UHGV virus genome: UHGV-0379321
Length of the DNA: 10,358 nt
Direction: 5' to 3' (one strand)
Origin: a virus
Position numbers and translations under genes: made by a program. Shown in pieces: positions 191 through 8,569 of the stretch. Within the stretch, counting starts at the first letter, position 1, and each line of letters begins with the position of its first letter. Below the pieces are notes generated by a model, which worked only from the letters and a program-made list of their open reading frames with translations, did not search any database and was not told the origin of the DNA.

Positions 191-266
191 TGGTGCTGGT
201 TAACGGACTTGAACCGCTACCCATTCGCTTACAAGGCGACTGCTCTACCATTGGAGCTAAACCAGC
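191..266 (-). tRNA. tRNA-Thr (anticodon UGU), phage-encoded
   Basis: 76-nt cloverleaf folded by hand on the minus strand: 7-bp acceptor GCTGGTT/AACCAGC, D-stem GCTC/GAGC, anticodon loop CTTGTAA, T-arm AGCGG-TTCAAGT-CCGTT, discriminator A, encoded CCA. Differs from E. coli thrU. Confidence 0.7.
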
Positions 267-271
267 ATATT

Positions 272-346
272 TGGCGGGACAGCGTGGACTCGAACCACGA
301 TAAGAAGGTTAACAGCCTTCCGTAATGACCTTTATACGACTGACCC
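272..346 (-). tRNA. tRNA-Asn-like (anticodon GUU), phage-encoded, one acceptor-stem mismatch
   Basis: 75-nt fold: acceptor GGGTCAG/CTGTCCC with a U4-U69 mismatch, perfect 5-bp anticodon stem GAAGG/CCTTC, loop CTGTTAA, T-arm CGTGG-TTCGAGT-CCACG, discriminator G, encoded CCA. D-arm is weak (3 bp). Only 5 nt from the tRNA-Thr. Confidence 0.5.
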
Positions 347-437: not shown

Positions 438-926
438 CTATGCTACATGTTTAATTTTCTCTACACGTTTCCGGTTTTTAAACGCACTATCCAGAACCGG
501 GTAAATCATAAACAACGAGGCATTGAGGATTTCGTCAACTTCCCGTCGACAGGTTGCGAGCGATGGTTTTTGAATGCGCCCGCCGCCCCGGCATAACATC
601 TTGCGAGGTCTTGCGACGCGATGATAGTAAGATGCAATGGCGTGCTTGGAAGAGCCGTGGGCGTAGTAGCTGAGGAGGATGCCAAAGGCTTTCTTGTCAA
701 TGTACATGACGGAATCGACGACCTGAGAAATCAACATTCCATCATCATCATTACACATTGGCCTTGTCATAACTCTTCCCGGCTCTACGCTCTCCATGAA
801 CTTAGCTATTACGCTGCTCATGCGCTTTTCCAGACGACCTGAATAAACCCATGCGCCCCACAGTTCAAGCCAGCCATTCAGCCACTCGTGCTGTTCTTTG
901 GTGAGGTTTAGTTCTCTTATGCCCAT
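438..926 (-). CDS. Q: Late-gene antitermination protein Q (phage 82 / QuuD-type family)
   Basis: ELWGAWV motif and RPMCNDDDGM region resemble the QuuD/82-type Q family (ERWGAWA...RPQCCDDDAM). Sits between ninG and the late promoter/lysis genes. Start chosen at ATG 924-926 with GGAG RBS; an upstream in-frame ATG at 983 is possible. Confidence 0.7.
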   Translation of the reverse strand: MGIRELNLTKEQHEWLNGWLELWGAWVYSGRLEKRMSSVIAKFMESVEPGRVMTRPMCNDDDGMLISQVVDSVMYIDKKAFGILLSYYAHGSSKHAIASYYHRVARPRKMLCRGGGRIQKPSLATCRREVDEILNASLFMIYPVLDSAFKNRKRVEKIKHVA

Positions 927-969
927 GCGCCTTCTCCCTTGTGATCTGGAATGGTTTTTACTGAGAACG

Positions 970-1575
970 TCATGCGGCCTCACTTCTGCTGTTTCGCAGG
1001 TCTTTGAGTTTCTGCTGATACTCCGCCTTGATGGCCCTGCACTCTTCGACAGTCCAGCGATGGCGGTTATGGTTTGATTCGATTTCGTCTACTGCTTCCT
1101 GCCCGATGCGGCTAATCAGTTCGACGCGATACGGAACGAGATTTCCGCTTTTGTGCTGGTTGCACACCACGCATTGCTTGTGAATATTGCGTTCATCAAA
1201 TCGGAGTTGAGGTGCCGCAGCAGTTGTCCGGTAATGTCCGGCATCCCACTGAGCAGACGTGAGCGTTCCGTAAGAGATACATGGTAAGTCGCGGTCTCTT
1301 TCTCTGATGAAGGCGTTTACGGCTTGTTGGGCTTGTTTAATCCAGTAACTGCGGGGCTTTAAGGCGAGTTTTCTAATCTTAAGTTTATCTTTCTGTTTCT
1401 GCTCCTCTCGTCGTCGTTTCTTCTCTGCTGCTTTTTCGCGTTCTTTACTTCGTCGTTCGAGTGCTATCTTGGTTCCACACTCTGGAGAGCACCACCACTG
1501 ATTAGCGAATGCAGGGTGAAACCATTCCCGACATTCATCGTTTTTACATCGTCTTCGCGCTGGTTTAGCCATCAT
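970..1575 (-). CDS. ninG: NinG / Rap recombination-associated structure-specific endonuclease
   Basis: 201-aa product near-identical along its length to lambda NinG as recalled (MAKPARR...[14 protein letters not shown]...[40 protein letters not shown]...[13 protein letters not shown]). Confidence 0.9.
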
Positions 1576-1777: not shown

Positions 1778-1914
1778 AGGTGAGCCGTGTAGTTGAAGGT
1801 TTTTACGTCAGATTCTTTTGGGATTGGCTTGCGTTTATTTCTGGAGCGTTTCGTTGGAAGGTATTTGCAGTTTTCGCAGATGATGTCGGTGATACTTCGT
1901 CGCTGTCGTCTCAT
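1732..1914 (-). CDS. ninE: NinE-like small basic protein (60 aa)
   Basis: [60 protein letters not shown]; 60 aa as in lambda NinE. ATG at 1912-1914 overlaps the ninB stop. NinE versus NinD assignment is from memory and not certain. Confidence 0.7.
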
Positions 1915-2339
1915 GCCGCCCTGTCTCCCCATCGCGCTTTCCATTCGAGAGCCAGTCGCGCTTCGTCCGACCACTTAACGCCACGCTCTGTACCGAATGC
2001 CTGTATAAGCTCTAATAGCTCCGCAAATTCGCTTACACGCATCCTGCTGGTTGACTGGCCTATTACCACAAAGCCATTCCCGGCAAGGTTAGGAACAACA
2101 TCCTGCTGCTTTAATGCTGCGGTAAACACACACTTCCAGCTTTCTGCATCCAGCCAGCGACCATGCCATTCAACCTGACGAGAGACGTCACCAAGGCAAG
2201 CCCAAAGCTTTCGATTCTGGTCTAAGCTGCGGTTGCGCTGCTTAAACTCGACAATGATGTCTAAATCGCATGTCCTAAGATACTGAATGGCGTTATATCT
2301 TATAGATTCATTAGTAAGGTGATATTTGACACATTTCAT
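1911..2339 (-). CDS. ninB: NinB (Orf-family recombination mediator) with a divergent N-terminus; restarts 1 nt after the HNH ORF stop
   Basis: From [75 protein letters not shown] to the C-terminus it matches lambda NinB residues 33-146 almost exactly. ATG at 2337-2339 with GAGGT RBS gives 142 aa (lambda NinB is 146). The six-frame ORF extends to a TTG at 2426, which I do not favour. Confidence 0.8.
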
Positions 2340-2832
2340 TTTAATACCTCGCAAATTCGCCGAAACATTCATCCGCTTTATTTGCATATACTTTATGAGC
2401 TTCCTTTGGGTCATCGTAAAACCCAAGATTAACTTTCCTCTTGTTGATTACGATTTGCGCCCTCCATTTTCTTGATTTCTTATCCCATGAAACGCCTTTA
2501 TATCCTGATTTGTTATTTGCCTTTTTGTTTACGTTTTGGATGTTTTGAGATCGAGTTGCCAATCTAAGATTTGCTATACGATTGTCATCCCTAACGAGAT
2601 TTATGTGGTCGATATCACTTTTTGGTAGACTGCCATTCATATAGAGCCACGCCAGCCTGTGTGCCTTATAAAGTTTTCCATCGACTTTTATTACCCAGTA
2701 GCCTTCGCTACTCTTATGCCCTGCGATATCCCCAGCATTCATTCTCTGGCATTTCTTTACTTTCCATGTGAATTTCCCTGTTAACTCATCGTAGAGAAGG
2801 ACTTCTTTAAGTCTCTGCTGAGTTATTTGATT
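2262..2832 (-). mobile_element. About 570-bp homing-endonuclease insertion inside ninB (between NinB codons about 32 and 33)
   Basis: Sequence homologous to lambda ninB stops after ...CCAACCAAACCAATC (around 2833) and resumes at ...ATCATTGTCGAG... (around 2262); the intervening DNA encodes the HNH-AP2 domain plus 78 nt that supply a new NinB start. Confidence 0.65.
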
Positions 2833-2928
2833 GATTGGTTTGGTTGGGTCTGGAATGATTTGCTGTACTGCGTGAATAGCGTTCTGCTGATGGATGTGGC
2901 TTCTTAGTTCAAACGTTAGTTTCCTCAT
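2341..2928 (-). CDS. HNH homing endonuclease with C-terminal AP2 DNA-binding domain, fused in frame to the first 32 codons of ninB
   Basis: Residues 1-32 (MRKLTFELRSHIHQQNAIHAVQQIIPDPTKPI) match the lambda NinB N-terminus. The rest carries an HNH motif (DIDHINLVRDDNRIANLRLATRSQN) and an AP2-like segment (SGYKGVSWDKKSRKWRAQIVINKRKVNLGFYDDPKEAHKVY). GGAG RBS before ATG 2926-2928. Confidence 0.85.
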   Translation of the reverse strand: MRKLTFELRSHIHQQNAIHAVQQIIPDPTKPINQITQQRLKEVLLYDELTGKFTWKVKKCQRMNAGDIAGHKSSEGYWVIKVDGKLYKAHRLAWLYMNGSLPKSDIDHINLVRDDNRIANLRLATRSQNIQNVNKKANNKSGYKGVSWDKKSRKWRAQIVINKRKVNLGFYDDPKEAHKVYANKADECFGEFARY

Positions 2929-3145
2929 GGGATGAACTCCAGTTTGCGATGTTAAATTCCCATTTAATTACCTTTGCATACCCAATTTTGAACCCATCAA
3001 TACCTATCCACCGATTGCCACTCCAATAAGCTGTACCACTTTGCTTGAAATGATGTGGATGCCTAGATTGAGTGGTCACAGTTACAGGTAAATATGGCTT
3101 CGGGTATTCCCCATTCCCTGGATAACCAGATTTAATTTTGCTCAT
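2909..3145 (-). CDS. Hypothetical 78-aa protein, translationally coupled to the upstream ORF
   Basis: ATG 3143-3145 overlaps the upstream TGA (ATGA), preceded by GAGAGAGGG. No family recognised (MSKIKSGYPGNGEYPKPYLPVTVTTQSRHPHHF...). Its 3' end overlaps the start of the ninB-HNH ORF by 20 nt. Confidence 0.45.
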   Translation of the reverse strand: MSKIKSGYPGNGEYPKPYLPVTVTTQSRHPHHFKQSGTAYWSGNRWIGIDGFKIGYAKVIKWEFNIANWSSSHEETNV

Positions 3146-3468
3146 TGATACCCTCTCTCACTTAATCGCGCCCACGCTTCGTTAAACTCTTCTCGGGTTG
3201 CGCCGGATTTTCTTTCTTCAAACATCATGCATTCGCTGATGTCTCCCCATGACTTTGGTCGCTTTTCAGCGAACAGATCATCCCATTCGAATACCCAGCG
3301 TCCTGATTTTCGGTAGTGGTAAATGGTCAGCCATGTTGTGCTGTTCGCTGGATACCCATAGAGAACTTCGACTTTTTGATCACGGTCTTTATGCTTTTTC
3401 AGCAGGATAAAGCCAGCAACCAGCGAAGCTCCGGCAAGAATGATGATTGGAATTTGCCAGTCAGCCAC
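3142..3468 (-). CDS. Hypothetical 108-aa membrane-anchored protein (one N-terminal TM helix)
   Basis: Hydrophobic segment IPIIILAGASLVAGFILL followed by KKHKDRDQK (positive-inside) and a roughly 80-aa soluble domain. GGGAGAGGGA RBS. Occupies the slot where lambda has ren/ninA. Confidence 0.55.
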   Translation of the reverse strand: MADWQIPIIILAGASLVAGFILLKKHKDRDQKVEVLYGYPANSTTWLTIYHYRKSGRWVFEWDDLFAEKRPKSWGDISECMMFEERKSGATREEFNEAWARLSERGYQ

Positions 3469-3480
3469 ACTTCCCTCTCC

Positions 3481-3515
3481 CCCAAATAAAAAGGCCTGCG
3501 ATTACCAGCAGGCCT
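3481..3515 (-). terminator. Intrinsic terminator downstream of the helicase gene
   Basis: On the minus strand: 8-bp stem AGGCCTGC / GCAGGCCT with an 8-nt loop, followed by TTTTTATTTGGG; lies between the helicase stop (3541) and the next RBS. Confidence 0.6.
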
Positions 3516-3540
3516 GTTATTAGCTCAGTGATGTAGATGG

Positions 3541-5934
3541 TCATACGTCAGCCCCTTGTGCATATCGTCTGCCACGCGCAGCAGGTGCATTTGATGCTGT
3601 GCAAATCTGTCTGGCTTCATCCTGGTCACATGCAACAAAGTGTCCGTTACAGAACCGCTGGTAAACCGTACCAAGTGAGCCAAAACGGTTTTTCGTCACG
3701 ATGATTTCAGCAAATGGCGCGGCGCTACTGTTCTCGTCATATACCGCTTCCCGATAGAGCATGATGATTGAGTCTGCGTCCTGCTCAATGCTTCCTGAAT
3801 CACGCAAATCTGCGTTTGTCGGGCGTTTGTTTGGTCGCTTCTCAACATCGCGAGAAAGCTGACTTAGGGAGATAACAGGCGTTTTCAGGTCTTTCGCCAT
3901 CGCCTTCAGGCTTCCGGAGATGTGAGCAATTGCGAGGTCGTTGCGGTCTGCTTTCGGCTTCTCAATCAGGCCAAGATAATCCGCCATGATGAGTGACAGG
4001 TTTGGATTTTCCTGTTTGTGTCGTTCTGCGATTGAGCGTATTTCTTCGACCGATAACCGCGAGGCATCGACTACCCATACATCCAAATCCGCAAGCTGAC
4101 TCATGCCGTTAGCAACGCGCGCCCAGCCTTCGTCATCCATCGCTGCAGGATTTCGCAGTACGCTAACCGACATCCTCCCGGCGTTGGCAATACTTCGCTC
4201 TGCAATCTGCAATGCGCTCATTTCCATTGAGAAAATCAATACTCCGCGCCGGACGTCAGAACCAGGAATAACACGGCTTGCAACGCCTTCGGCAATCTTC
4301 AGCGCCAGTTCCGTATTGTGCGTAACGATGTAATCCGTTGTCACATAGAGATGGCTAGGATGGCTTACCATGATGCAGAGACACTCTTCTGGCTCAACAA
4401 CTTCAACCGATTTGATACCCACACCAAGGTCGCCAAGCCTGTTAATCCCGAGATTTTTGCGTAAACGTGGTGAGTGAATTTGCTCTATCAAAGATGATGG
4501 CAACTTCATGCTGACCATGTGTGCATCAAGTCCGTCATGCTTCTCTCCTTTGTACGTGTAAACTATTCCCGTCCTGCTGGATTCTTTGGCGGTTCCACCT
4601 AAAGATCTAGCAAGCCTTACTAATCCTTTAGCTAATTTCTGACTGGATGAACTAAAGCGGATGCATCCGGACTTCTCAACCCAGCCATCTGTCTCGAGAA
4701 GGCCAGTTAAAACACCGGTACGTATTTCTTTGCTAGCACTAAAAATTTCTGCTGGGATTTCCTTCTCGGACGCACCTTTCCCGATCACCCCAATGCCACG
4801 TAGTTTGTCCAATAGTGGGTTCTTCTGGCCTTTTTGGTTGCTTATCAAATAATCATTCTCTCCTACCTTAACCAGTCGCAATGGTGCAATTGCATCACTC
4901 ATGCGGCTCAGGACATATTCTTCCGAGTTGGTGAATTTGATGCCTTTTATCAACGAACCGTCACCAAGTAGAGCACCAATAACCCAACCATCAAGGGAAA
5001 TATTTTTACCAAAGTCTCCGGTCAAGGATGGCACTCTTATTCTTCCCTGATAACGTGTTTTTTGTAGCATCCCAGCCAGCGCATCAGTATCAACAACGCG
5101 TTTACCAGTAAATCTTGATGATGAAATTTCCCATAAGTGGTTGTCGGCACATTTCACGCTACGTCCGTCTTCAAAGGTGACTAAATATGTGAATTTCTTC
5201 CCTTGTGGGAAGACGCCAATTACCTCCGAAGGAAGCCCGTCTATTGACGCGATGCGATCGCCAATTTTGACTTCTCCGTGAGTAGTCCAGGTGCCATCTG
5301 CAAGTAAAATCCCTTCGCTTAGCGCCATTGCTTTCCCCATACCAGGACGAGCAGCGATTATCACCAGGTCTTCCGCGTTCATCCCTCCGGTGATGGCGTC
5401 AAGTTCTTCGATTCCGGTCTTCAGGGTATCTGACTCTTCTCCGTTCCTCAGGCGCCTGTCAAGCGTGTCAGTGTAGTCAGTGATGATTTCCCCTAACCGT
5501 ACAGGTTTAACCTCGTCACGGGGCTTTCTGATGGCTGAGAGACGCTTTACAAGCTCGTCCATCGCCTGACTCGATGTATCGATGGTTCCGTTCTGAATTG
5601 GTTCACGCATTTCATCCATGATTTCCAGCACCAGACGGCGGTGATAGTTATCCGCGACCATTCCGGCATATCCCTTCAGGTTTGCGGCACTCGGGCAGTT
5701 TTTGCTGGTCATCAGGATTGACGTGAAATGCTCCTCTCCGCACGCCTCGGCAACCATCAGCGCGTCGATTAGGTTTCTGTTTCGCGCCTGCTTGCGGATA
5801 ACCTCGAAGGCTTTCCGGTAGAGCGGAATTGAAAACGCTTCCGGCTCCAGCGTTGCCAGAACGTCACTGGCAGTTGGTGTTAATCCACCAATCAGCAGAC
5901 CACCGATAACGCTCGCTTCGATATCCTGTCTCAT
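3541..5934 (-). CDS. Replicative DnaB-family helicase (P22 gene 12-type) interrupted by an intein; 797-aa precursor, 458-aa predicted spliced product
   Basis: DnaB N-terminal domain ([14 protein letters not shown]), Walker A split as ...[10 protein letters not shown] | intein | [10 protein letters not shown]..., DnaB motif [15 protein letters not shown]. Start ATG overlaps the O stop (ATGA). Confidence 0.9.
4315..5331 (-). mobile_element. Intein (339 aa) with LAGLIDADG homing-endonuclease domain, inserted between Lys and Thr of the helicase P-loop; class-3-like
   Basis: Starts with Ala after GMGK, ends in HN followed by +1 Thr. Two LAGLIDADG-type motifs ([15 protein letters not shown] and [15 protein letters not shown]). 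Block-B-like CADNHLW with Trp, a Cys in the F-block region (EECLCIMV) and Thr in VTHN fit the WCT pattern of class 3 inteins. Removing it restores GMGKTELAL. Confidence 0.8.
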
Positions 5935-6878
5935 GCAATCCCCCTGTCTGCAAACTTCCCTTCCCGAACTCCCGTTAACGAGTCTTCCCTCAGCAGGTAA
6001 TCAAAATCTGCCGTCCAGCCCGTGTCGTTGTCTCCGAAGTAAAACGGCTTGGCCTGATGTACAAACGCCCTGACATACGCTCTGAAACCGTCCACGTTTG
6101 GCGTTTTCAGTTGCGGGATGATTTTCTTCAGGCGGCGTTTGCGTTTCTCGTTGACCGCAACAGCGTGTGGCAGTCTGTCACCAACTTCGGTGTTGTAGGC
6201 GTTCAGGAAGGATTCGTAGTCGATGCGTTCTGCCTTGCGACGTTCAGGTTTAACCTGCCCATCGCCTCCCCCATTGGGGGGTAGGGGGGTATTATTTATA
6301 TTCTTGTTAATACCTTCTTGTTCATGATGTGCGGTTGTTTGTGCGGCTTCATGTGCGCTTTCATGTGCGGCATGTACGCTGAATGCCGCGCCATTACTGG
6401 CTTCATCATGTGCGGCATCATGTGCGGTTGTTTGTGCGGCTTCATGTGCGGGTGAATTGTCCATTTTTTGAGCATATTCATGGTAATTTGTGATGGTTAT
6501 CACACGACCTTTTTGCTTCTCCCCATCAATGGAGATCATCCCCTCTTTCACAAAAACCTGAAGCATCCGCTCAACCTGATCACGGCTTGCCGGCTTGCCA
6601 TGCCTGTCGCATAACTGAAGACCTAAATCAGCTGCTGTCACAACCAGTTGACCGGGTTGCAGATGCCATTCATGACCTTTGAAATTCGCTTTGTATGGCT
6701 TTCTGGCAGCATTCAGGAGAAGGTTTTCCCACAGGGTGCGAAGATAAACATCTTTCGCCCATGACTGTTTCAGAATGCTCCGGTACAACGGAATGTAACC
6801 AGTTTTCTGGTTCTCCATCCTGTTGCTCCTGCGCTCGTGTGCGGCGATGAAATCGTAGATTTTTGCTGTATTGCTCAT
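5931..6878 (-). CDS. O: Replication initiator, lambda O-like N-terminus, with internal origin
   Basis: N-terminus [10 protein letters not shown] resembles lambda O (MTNTAKILNF). Central low-complexity His/Ala-rich linker is encoded by the repeat array; C-terminal domain differs from lambda O, consistent with pairing to a DnaB-type helicase. ATG 6876-6878. Confidence 0.8.
6327..6451. repeat. Candidate replication origin iterons (about 9 copies of ATGTGCGG-like units in two blocks) inside the O gene
   Basis: Units (A/T)TGTGCG(G/C) at 6327, 6339, 6351, 6363, 6372, 6408, 6420, 6432, 6444; a 36-bp block at 6323-6358 is repeated almost exactly at 6417-6452. An AT-rich stretch and the palindrome CCCCCA-T-TGGGGG lie just downstream (6272-6320), as in the lambda ori layout. 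Confidence 0.55.
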
Positions 6879-7175: not shown

Positions 7176-7472
7176 TTAAAATTCCATTTGTATTTGATCA
7201 GAACGCTCGGTTGCCGCCGGGCGTTTTTTATTGGTGAGTCCATCAAGCGCATACTTAAAAGCCCTGCTAATCGGACTGATGTCTGATGCCATTCCGAAAG
7301 CACACAAGACCGAAGCAATAAACCGCCAGTCGGTACGACTGATCTTCGATTCATGACAGCCAATCATCTTTGCCAGACCGCGCTGGGTAAGCGTTGACAG
7401 GTTGATGAGTAAATCTGTTTCTGCGCGATCAACGTCGCGCTGTGATAGTTTGCTGTAACTTGTTTGTTCCAT
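7176..7472 (-). CDS. cII: CII-like transcriptional activator (lysogeny establishment)
   Basis: C-terminus LTNKKRPAATERSDQIQMEF matches lambda CII (ILTNKKRPAATERSEQIQMEF); HTH region GLAKMIGCHESKISR aligns with lambda CII; AGGTAGG RBS. Confidence 0.85.
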   Translation of the reverse strand: MEQTSYSKLSQRDVDRAETDLLINLSTLTQRGLAKMIGCHESKISRTDWRFIASVLCAFGMASDISPISRAFKYALDGLTNKKRPAATERSDQIQMEF

Positions 7473-7582: not shown

Positions 7583-7798
7583 TTAAGCGGCTTTGTGTTC
7601 CGGTGGGAACACGTCATCAAGACTGACTTTTGCGCCTAACTTGTTTAGGCACGCAACAAGAGCACGGCATGTTTTAAGGTCTGGGAAGCGACGACCAGAT
7701 TCCCAATGTCCGATAGCTCCCTGTGTGCATCCAACCGCCTTAGCAAGTGTTGTTTGAGAGATATTCAGTGACTCTCGATATTTTCGTAGGTTGCTCAT
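7583..7798 (-). CDS. cro: Cro-like HTH repressor (XRE family), 71 aa
   Basis: MSNLRKYRESLNISQTTLAKAVGCTQGAIGHWESGRRFPDL...; ATG 7796-7798 with GGAGGG RBS; divergent from cI across the operator region; shares the TQGxIGHW motif with the cI N-terminus. The six-frame ORF extending to 7969 is not favoured. Confidence 0.75.
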   Translation of the reverse strand: MSNLRKYRESLNISQTTLAKAVGCTQGAIGHWESGRRFPDLKTCRALVACLNKLGAKVSLDDVFPPEHKAA

Positions 7799-7824: not shown

Positions 7825-7853
7825 ATAATACGATATGTACTTTTTGAATGCAA
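7825..7853 (-). promoter_or_regulatory. Candidate PR promoter for cro (-35 TTGCAT, 17-bp spacer, -10 TATTAT) overlapping an operator site
   Basis: Hexamers read on the minus strand; the 13-bp GTAC-N5-GTA motif at 7828-7840 sits within the spacer and -10. Confidence 0.45.
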
Positions 7854-7899
7854 ACAAAAAATACATCTTGTGCATGGATGGTTTTAGTACAGAGCGTAA
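7828..7899. promoter_or_regulatory. OR operator region: two 13-bp GTAC-N5-GTA sites (7828-7840 and 7887-7899)
   Basis: GTACATATCGTAT (minus orientation) and GTACAGAGCGTAA share their core with GTACACATCGTAC at PL (8708-8720); located between divergent cro and cI. Confidence 0.45.
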
Positions 7900-7909
7900 T
7901 AATAAGGAT

Positions 7910-8569
7910 ATGAAAATGAAATGGTATGAACTGGCTAGATCCAGAATGAAAGAACTCGGCATAACTCAAGAGAAGTTAGCTGAAGAGCTTGGTATGACGC
8001 AGGGTGGAATTGGTCACTGGTTGCGCGGATCTCGTCATCCATCTCTTGACGAGATTGGTGTGGTGTTTAAATACCTTGGTATTGATAACGTCTCATTCAA
8101 CCACGACGGTACATTTTCACCTGTTGGCGAATACTCATCTGCCCCCGTTAAAAAACAATATGAGTACCCTGTTTTTTCTCATGTTCAGGCCGGGATGTTC
8201 TCGCCTGAGCTTAGAACCTTTACCAAAGGCGATGCGGAGAGATGGGTCAGCACAACCAAAAAAGCCAGTGATTGTGCGTTTTGGCTTGAAGTTGAAGGTA
8301 ATTCCATGACCGCACCAACAGGATCCAAGCCAAGCTTTCCTGACGGGATGTTAATTCTCGTTGACCCTGAGCAGGCTGTTGAGCCAGGTGATTTCTGCAT
8401 AGCCAGACTTGGTGGTGACGAGTTTACCTTCAAGAAACTGATCAGGGATAGCGGTCAGGTGTTCCTACAACCACTAAACCCGCAATATCCAATGATCCCA
8501 TGCAATGATAGCTGTTCCGTAGTAGGGAAAGTTATCGCCAGCCAGTGGCCTGAAGAGACATTTAGTTAA
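7910..8569 (+). CDS. cI: CI repressor: non-lambda N-terminal HTH domain fused to a lambda-type C-terminal S24 autopeptidase domain
   Basis: From [38 protein letters not shown]... to the end it is near-identical to lambda cI as recalled, including the GNSMTAPTG and FKKLIRD catalytic region. N-terminus ([36 protein letters not shown]) differs. Start ATG 7910 or 7916 (AAGGA RBS); the ORF from 7835 would leave no room for operators. Confidence 0.9.

Follow-up and report, generated by a model that had tools for sequence, protein, structure and literature searches.

What are the two small genes that lie between the helicase terminator and the ninB region of this phage, and do they form a functional unit? 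The window, by which we mean the whole analysed stretch of 10,358 nt of virus genome UHGV-0379321, encodes on its minus strand a protein of 108 aa and, directly behind it, one of 78 aa (here ORF108 and ORF78). The original prediction saw in them a translationally coupled accessory pair with a possible role in superinfection exclusion or abortive infection. Coordinates and sequence agree with two ORFs of these lengths joined by an ATGA overlap. On balance we consider it somewhat probable that ORF108 and ORF78 are unrelated, individually mobile and non-essential nin-region genes, which belong to the delayed-early rightward operon of a lambdoid/P22-like prophage. The features used below are, in window coordinates:

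7835-8569, plus strand: cI-like repressor
7583-7744, minus strand: cro, taken from an internal ATG
7176-7472, minus strand: cII
5931-6878, minus strand: O
3541-5934, minus strand: intein-containing DnaB helicase, with its stop at 3541
3461-3544, minus strand: NinA homologue of 27 aa, spanning the terminator
3492-3515, minus strand: hairpin of a tR2-type intrinsic terminator (8 bp, 6 of them GC, with an 8-nt loop), from a terminator scan and RNA folding
3482-3491, minus strand: U-tract of the tR2-type terminator
3473-3483, minus strand: strong Shine-Dalgarno (SD) sequence GGGGGAGAGGG of ORF108, 4 nt before the GTG, read from the sequence
3142-3468, minus strand: ORF108, 108 aa, GTG start, from the ORF list
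3400-3456, minus strand: transmembrane (TM) segment of ORF108, residues 5-23 (QIPIIILAGASLVAGFILL)
3151-3159, minus strand: strong SD sequence GAGAGAGGG of ORF78, 5 nt before the ATG and inside the 3' end of ORF108
3142-3145, minus strand: ATGA overlap of the ORF108 stop (TGA, 3142-3144) and the ORF78 start (ATG, 3143-3145)
2909-3145, minus strand: ORF78, 78 aa, ATG start, from the ORF list
2909-2928, minus strand: 20 nt shared by the 3' end of ORF78 and the ninB start region
2341-2928, minus strand: ORF of an HNH-AP2 endonuclease, the first 33 codons of which are a ninB 5' remnant
1911-2339, minus strand: ninB
970-1575, minus strand: ninG
438-983, minus strand: Q

Together, the minus-strand genes constitute the early-right operon of a lambdoid/P22-like prophage. 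The sole matches of an Rfam scan in the window were two tRNAs. A terminator had been proposed to follow the helicase gene, and the tR2-type hairpin at 3492-3515 was indeed found there; the hairpin block between the DnaB stop (3541) and ORF108 is the annotated tR2 in Sf6 and P22. The 27-aa NinA homologue is 100% identical to Sf6 gp45, which is annotated as “similar to phage 21 NinA” (tblastn), and P22 carries a ninA of the same or nearly identical sequence at the same position. It begins within an ATGA shared with the helicase stop and runs 8 nt into the start of ORF108 (GTGGCTGA).

The ninA-ninB junction of P22 contains a block of helicase stop, ninA, tR2 and SD identical to that of the window. 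There, the same GGGGGAGAGGG directly serves ninB, which follows at once, whereas in the window 560 nt with ORF108 and ORF78 are interposed. Since the SD of P22 leads straight into ninB, the two genes represent, relative to P22, an insertion between ninA and ninB. The locus had been described as the ren/ninA slot; ren, where present, is located upstream of the tR2 block and ORF108 and ORF78 are located downstream of it, so that the slot is ninA/ninB and not that of ren. Furthermore, it is not ninB that directly follows the pair, as that description implied, but the HNH-AP2 endonuclease ORF (2341-2928) with its 33-codon ninB remnant. The conserved joints are at the outer ends: upstream the ninA/tR2/SD block, downstream the start of ninB. 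The locus cleanly illustrates how the nin region exchanges genes in mosaic fashion, with gene boundaries as the sites of exchange.

ORF108 is a real coding gene for a membrane-anchored protein and belongs to a known family, that of Sf6 gene 46. It matched phrog_5903 over the full length (hmmscan, residues 1-108 of 108, E 8.9e-76) and is 98-99% identical at the amino acid level, and ~98% at the nucleotide level, to the gene 46 protein of Shigella phage Sf6 (AAQ12235.1). Sf6 gene 46 shares with it the length, the GTG start overlapping ninA and the position directly after the tR2 block; the last residue of the two proteins differs (L vs Q), and the 4-nt overlap partner of gp46 in Sf6 is not ORF78 but the unrelated 66-aa gp47. 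The exact ORF108 protein was found on 197 contigs. A single-sequence search yielded 58 clusters of homologs and a profile search 102; all these proteins have a single domain, are 51-149 aa long and come from Enterobacterales or phages of these. Relatives also occur in virulent phages, namely T1-like and T5-like phages and the jumbo phage Goslar.

For ORF108, a single N-terminal TM helix with a cytoplasmic domain had been predicted, and Kyte-Doolittle hydropathy, flank charges and the AF2 model all agree with this. The 19 residues from 5 to 23 are hydrophobic (Kyte-Doolittle 2.28) and are flanked by a charge of −1 on the acidic N-terminal side and of +2 on the C-terminal side, where the basic cluster KKHKDRDQK is located; under the positive-inside rule, these charges point to an N-out/C-in orientation. 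The AF2 model (pLDDT 82) consists of a TM helix at residues 3-29, four strands and a C-terminal helix. A TM segment exists in 23 of 27 aligned family members, all of them with an N-flank charge of zero or below and most with a positive C-flank, and is missing in P0032, P0051 and the homologs from the T1-like phage IME207 and the T5-like phage KookSpook. The TM sequence itself is not conserved across the family. The conserved unit comprises residues ~33-105 (~75 aa), has an alpha/beta architecture and carries the motifs YGYP..WLTIYH.R..FEWDDLF..RP..GAT.EE. Invariant positions number ~20, with Y37, G38, Y39, P40, W46, L47, T48, Y50, H51 and R53 in its first half and F60, E61, W62, D63, D64, L65, F66, R70 and E94 further on. 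Conservation of the domain rather than of the TM segment supports a cytoplasmic site of action.

ORF78 is a real gene as well; it encodes a small, soluble, beta-rich protein and its 3' end is welded to the start of ninB. The full-length match was to phrog_29435 (hmmscan, residues 1-78 of 78, E 1.3e-57), and the AF2 model (pLDDT 85) shows five strands and a short helix. Conserved motifs are GYPGNGEYP..AYWSG.RW..VIKW. The exact protein is present on 335 contigs, and the family is rare: an exhaustive HMM search of 1.8 billion proteins returned 14 above threshold, among them one truncated and two spurious repeat-protein matches; with these removed, the family counts 12 representatives, and the remaining matches are small orphan proteins. 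A scan of the GTDB species representatives gave no real relative. Members of phrog_29435 from Klebsiella phage VLCpiS13c (S13c_00065) and from an Enterobacter ludwigii prophage (P0060) are 56-78% identical to ORF78. The last seven codons of ORF78 (SHEETNV) lie within the conserved overlap with the ninB start. This tail recurs in the unrelated Sf6 gp49, which is located directly before ninB, too, and the same 20-nt overlap exists with an intact ninB in Enterobacter (P0060) and in IMG/VR loci; in the window, the ninB start overlapped in this way is that of the 33-codon remnant fused to the HNH endonuclease. The siphophage homologs of ORF78 are 60-72 aa long and do not possess the SHEETNV tail.

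The genuineness of both ORFs follows from purifying selection, divergent homologs and confident AF2 models. Among IMG/VR alleles, pN/pS was 0.19 for ORF108 and 0.44 for ORF78; compared with the 78%-identical Enterobacter allele, the value for ORF78 was 0.24. One allele of each ORF carries a nonsense mutation. Homologs of both reach down to ~40% identity.

Are these two genes a functional pair, as had been proposed? Several observations link them. Besides the ATGA overlap, ORF78 has its SD inside ORF108, and ORF78 alleles of at least 92% identity lie directly behind ORF108 in 24 of 24 cases in IMG/VR and in 25 of 25 E. coli genomes. This close linkage holds with a DnaB-type or a P22 gp12-type helicase upstream and with several ninB alleles downstream, and pS values of 0.04-0.07 within the pair indicate that the arrangement is not brand new. 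One might thus think of a two-component module, in which a membrane-anchored effector (ORF108) and a soluble partner or regulator (ORF78) would be kept in stoichiometric expression by the overlap. The constant position of close ORF78 alleles may also mean that ORF78 depends on ORF108, for translation or for function.

Seen from ORF108, however, the linkage dissolves. As had been expected for a variable-cargo slot, its downstream neighbour changes between loci: among 80 IMG/VR loci with ORF108, it is ORF78 in only 23, a gp47-like gene in 47 and directly ninB in 10. ORF108 was found in 108 of 5426 complete E. coli genomes, and the pair in only 25 of these 108. Therefore, about 75% of the ORF108 loci (57 of 80 in IMG/VR, 83 of 108 in E. 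coli) are without ORF78; there, ORF108 either overlaps an unrelated gene by the same 4 nt or adjoins ninB, the latter also seen for its homolog in phage Oslo. Moreover, 4-nt overlaps are the default packing along the whole operon, which weakens the ATGA overlap as an argument for the module.

Divergent relatives of the two families were never found together. An HMM search of all ORFs detected the partner family in none of 15 divergent loci (nine for ORF108, six for ORF78), and within 3 kb of ORF78 homologs at 78, 65, 56 and 42% identity and of ORF108 homologs at 40-65% identity the respective other family is absent. In Enterobacter, the ORF78 homolog (78% identity) is preceded by a phiTE_015-family gene instead of ORF108, and the homolog in VLCpiS13c has no ORF108-family neighbour either. 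Elsewhere, relatives of ORF78 lie between a DUF3799 exonuclease and ERF, beside helicase genes and a possible nuclease or, in Klebsiella siphophages, after a methyltransferase. The divergent relatives of ORF108 follow lambda-P, are located near int in a Pantoea prophage, stand between primase and helicase in IME207 or, on contigs that reach ~148 kb, are found behind DNA polymerase A. A GYP motif is present in both proteins, and the homology that it suggested was rejected on family-versus-family comparison: the two families are unrelated.

Hence, conserved co-occurrence across divergent homologs, which would be expected of a dedicated two-gene system, was not observed; its lack had been named in advance as an outcome that would speak against the pair, and the one exception is the close ORF78 alleles, always found behind ORF108. 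The association of ORF108 with ORF78 is confined to one near-identical clade, for which linkage by descent inside one mosaic cassette is the simplest reading, and we regard the two-component module as unlikely. ORF108 and ORF78 are ordinary mosaic nin-region cargo, already catalogued (Sf6 gene 46 family and phrog_29435).

The position of the genes bears on when they are expressed. The gap between tR2 and ORF108 is only ~20 nt long, and a simple consensus scan, which a weak or non-sigma70 promoter could escape, found no promoter-like site between tR2 (3492-3515) and ORF108. With no promoter in this gap, transcription of ORF108 and ORF78 should need N-antiterminated read-through, and expression in the lysogen is unlikely. 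We infer a lytic, delayed-early expression of both genes; lytic expression is also suggested by the fact that T1-like, T5-like and jumbo phages, all virulent, carry members of the ORF108 family. The hallmarks of a moron were not found, as there is neither a flanking promoter nor a terminator after ORF78. Both genes overlap their neighbours at both ends, and the sole other terminator-like match (3412-3424) lies within ORF108 and has a weak stem of 5 bp. During experimental evolution of Sf6, deletions of part or all of genes 46-58 swept repeatedly and outcompeted the ancestor (PMC5630979), which indicates that the ORF108 family is dispensable for lytic growth in the laboratory.

These results can be set against the suggestion that ORF108, alone or with ORF78, is an inner-membrane superinfection-exclusion or abortive-infection factor in the manner of T4 Imm/Sp, P22 SieA or HK97 gp15. 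Of the two ORFs, only ORF108 shares small size and an N-terminal membrane anchor with these proteins, and sequence or profile similarity to them was detected neither for ORF108 nor for ORF78. The predicted small bitopic inner-membrane topology of ORF108, the variable accessory slot and the ability of Sf6 to grow lytically without gene 46 are in line with such a function. The prophage exclusion proteins P22 SieA and HK97 gp15 have promoters of their own and are made in the lysogen, whereas ORF108 lies downstream of tR2 without a detectable promoter, and lysogen expression is not expected. Imm and Sp, in turn, are small membrane proteins that the virulent phage T4 makes early and lytically, a precedent that makes lytic expression and presence in virulent phages compatible with exclusion. 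The anatomy of ORF108 fits less well: in contrast to these exclusion proteins, its conserved part is the cytoplasmic domain and some members of the family do without the TM helix, and TM-less members, those of T1-like and T5-like phages included, are difficult to reconcile with a block of DNA entry at the membrane. Neither a PADLOC defence model nor a Pfam family nor an annotated PHROG was matched. Taken together with the missing promoter and the family members in virulent phages, this left the exclusion or abortive-infection function without positive support, and we consider it distinctly improbable. The idea of the locus as a candidate two-gene defence system is thereby corrected; our best guess is a lytic accessory role, compared with which a prophage-expressed two-gene defence system is disfavoured.

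A lytic role could also be one of counter-defence or host takeover, in which one or both proteins would resemble Ren in role and either shield the phage from exclusion or inhibit a host enzyme. The delayed-early lytic context, the occurrence of the ORF108 family in temperate as well as virulent enterobacterial phages and a slot near the ren position of other lambdoid phages would suit such proteins, and the ~20 invariant aromatic and charged residues of ORF108 are what would be expected of a specific binding surface. Lambda Ren is, like ORF108 and ORF78, small, non-essential and encoded, in lambdoid phages, after the replication genes and before ninB; unlike them, it is encoded upstream of the tR2 block, and it is a soluble protein, whereas ORF108 is membrane-anchored. 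Homology to Ren was rejected, with hhalign probabilities of 0.8% and 0.06% for the two families. Since no solved structure shares the fold, there is also no link to a characterised inhibitor, and we think a counter-defence or takeover role quite unlikely.

Further searches gave no lead to a function, in agreement with the original prediction that none could be assigned from sequence. Pfam, NCBIfam and PADLOC contained no match for ORF108 or ORF78 (PADLOC at E up to 0.1); a scan of all members of both alignments, with the E limit raised to 10, added nothing beyond TM-helix noise such as FixQ. Profile-HMM searches matched only phrog_5903 and phrog_29435, and the annotated PHROGs gave no functional match for either protein. 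Neither family profile matched a PDB sequence, and structure searches, which had been proposed alongside, found no significant fold match among solved structures for either protein; against BFVD, the matches were confined to family members of phages Goslar and IME207, themselves uncharacterised. The ORF108 alignment, searched against 5.8 billion proteins, revealed no informative domain fusions. Literature searches for the accession, PHROG id or peptide motifs of ORF108 and ORF78 found nothing. Because one ORF78 homolog is encoded just upstream of erf, we also compared ORF78 with P22 Arf, the Erf cofactor, and rejected this assignment (hhalign probability 0.07%). An initial impression that ORF78 resembles DUF551 had no support from Pfam.

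How might the two proteins act, if they are independent accessory genes of the lytic phase? Transcription would occur only when N-antiterminated PR transcripts pass tR2, i.e., during lytic growth or induction. ORF108 would then be inserted into the inner membrane N-out/C-in, its acidic and aromatic domain (FEWDDLF, YGYP, WLT.YH.R) facing the cytoplasm, where it most likely would bind a host or phage protein and tether it to the membrane. ORF78 would act independently, as a soluble accessory protein linked to ninB. Both families recur inside replication and recombination modules of unrelated phages. From these neighbourhoods, our best guess is that both have an accessory part, during lytic growth, in the DNA metabolism of the phage or in the takeover of the host; the argument is weakened by the tendency of most phages to carry early genes of no known function close to those for replication.

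Phage phi29 offers an analogy, as its p16.7, an early protein anchored in the membrane, organises the replication of the phage DNA. Like ORF108, as far as the predicted features of the latter can be compared, p16.7 combines an N-terminal TM helix with a small cytoplasmic domain and is early, non-essential and encoded beside replication genes. The domain of ORF108 is near-neutral and not obviously DNA-binding, and the likeness is purely one of functional analogy. A bolder proposal combines two claims, namely that ORF108 represents a new family of early proteins tethering a factor to the inner membrane and that ORF78 is a new accessory factor of NinB/Orf and ERF. If both held, temperate lambdoid, T1-like, T5-like and jumbo enterobacterial phages would have in common a protein that tethers a replication, recombination or host factor, either as a p16.7-like organiser or as a new host-takeover or exclusion effector, and both proteins would have folds without a solved relative. 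That the two claims hold jointly appears to us a long shot. Should a function of ORF108 be found, phage early biology could gain a new family of small proteins, which for now is no more than a possibility.

Two side observations concern the families as such. The ORF108 family is conserved phage-wide with ~20 invariant residues and has no related solved fold. Additionally, ORF78 is a genuine gene that RefSeq/PGAP has left out: nothing is annotated over it in any of the 25 complete E. coli genomes that carry it (25/25).

Nothing was annotated by RefSeq/PGAP under the match to ORF78 (window 2929-3141) in 25/25 of the E. coli complete genomes that carry this 78-aa ORF. The gene is left out despite an SD, purifying selection and homologues elsewhere, and its absence from RefSeq/PGAP is a systematic annotation gap. 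Broken alleles were found for both members of the pair, one each: an ORF78 allele with a nonsense codon at position 26 (IMG/VR locus L113, 3001-3237) and an allele of the preceding 108-aa ORF, ORF108, with a nonsense codon at W73 (IMG/VR locus L088, 3001-3327). They represent occasional pseudogenisation of ORF78 and ORF108, as fits non-essential cargo.

ORF78-family genes were also located in other settings, in two loci:

L132, 2027-3872, ORF78-family gene setting
L116, 1176-3647, ORF78-family gene setting

On T1-like siphophage contigs they have a DUF3799 exonuclease on one side and an ERF annealase on the other, with 4-nt overlaps. On another contig the family member has as neighbours a DEAD/ResIII-type helicase and an ORF of 163 aa, which, judged by eye alone, resembles a VRR-NUC nuclease. 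The recombination-module setting recurs, paralleling the adjacency of ORF78 and ninB in the window, where further features of the operon and its surroundings were as follows.

Further features of the window
191-266, minus strand, tRNA-Thr (TGT), downstream of the Q antiterminator gene
272-346, minus strand, tRNA-Asn (GTT), downstream of the Q antiterminator gene
1911-2339, minus strand, complete ninB, following the HNH-AP2 ORF
2341-2928, minus strand, HNH-AP2 homing endonuclease ORF (region 1911-2928)
3461-3544, minus strand, putative hydrophobic 27-aa NinA homologue, spanning the tR2 hairpin
4315-5331, minus strand, 339-aa intein within the gene for the DnaB helicase (3541-5934)

The first 32-33 codons of the HNH-AP2 ORF are identical to the N-terminus of intact NinB; in the complete ninB that follows, recoding affects the first ~36 residues, and the remainder is identical. 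It looks as if an endonuclease cassette was inserted into ninB and brought with it a 5′ end of ninB that resists cleavage. IMG/VR locus L022 has this HNH and ninB cassette too, there behind a different gene set, and in E. coli AVS0578 the HNH/ninB junction was called a pseudogene fragment by PGAP.

At the other end of the pair, the putative NinA homologue shares an ATGA overlap with the helicase stop and an 8-nt overlap with the start of ORF108. The intein within the helicase, which contains LAGLIDADG/Hom_end homing-endonuclease matches, is inserted within the Walker A motif, directly after GMGK. It begins with Ala (AMALSEG...) and ends in ...VTHN, followed by Thr as the +1 residue; because the first residue is non-nucleophilic, the sequence suggests a class 3-type intein. 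E. coli PEC011 encodes an uninterrupted 458-aa helicase with 99% identity to the DnaB exteins of the window, and a related prophage in this genome shows the same tRNA arrangement downstream of Q.
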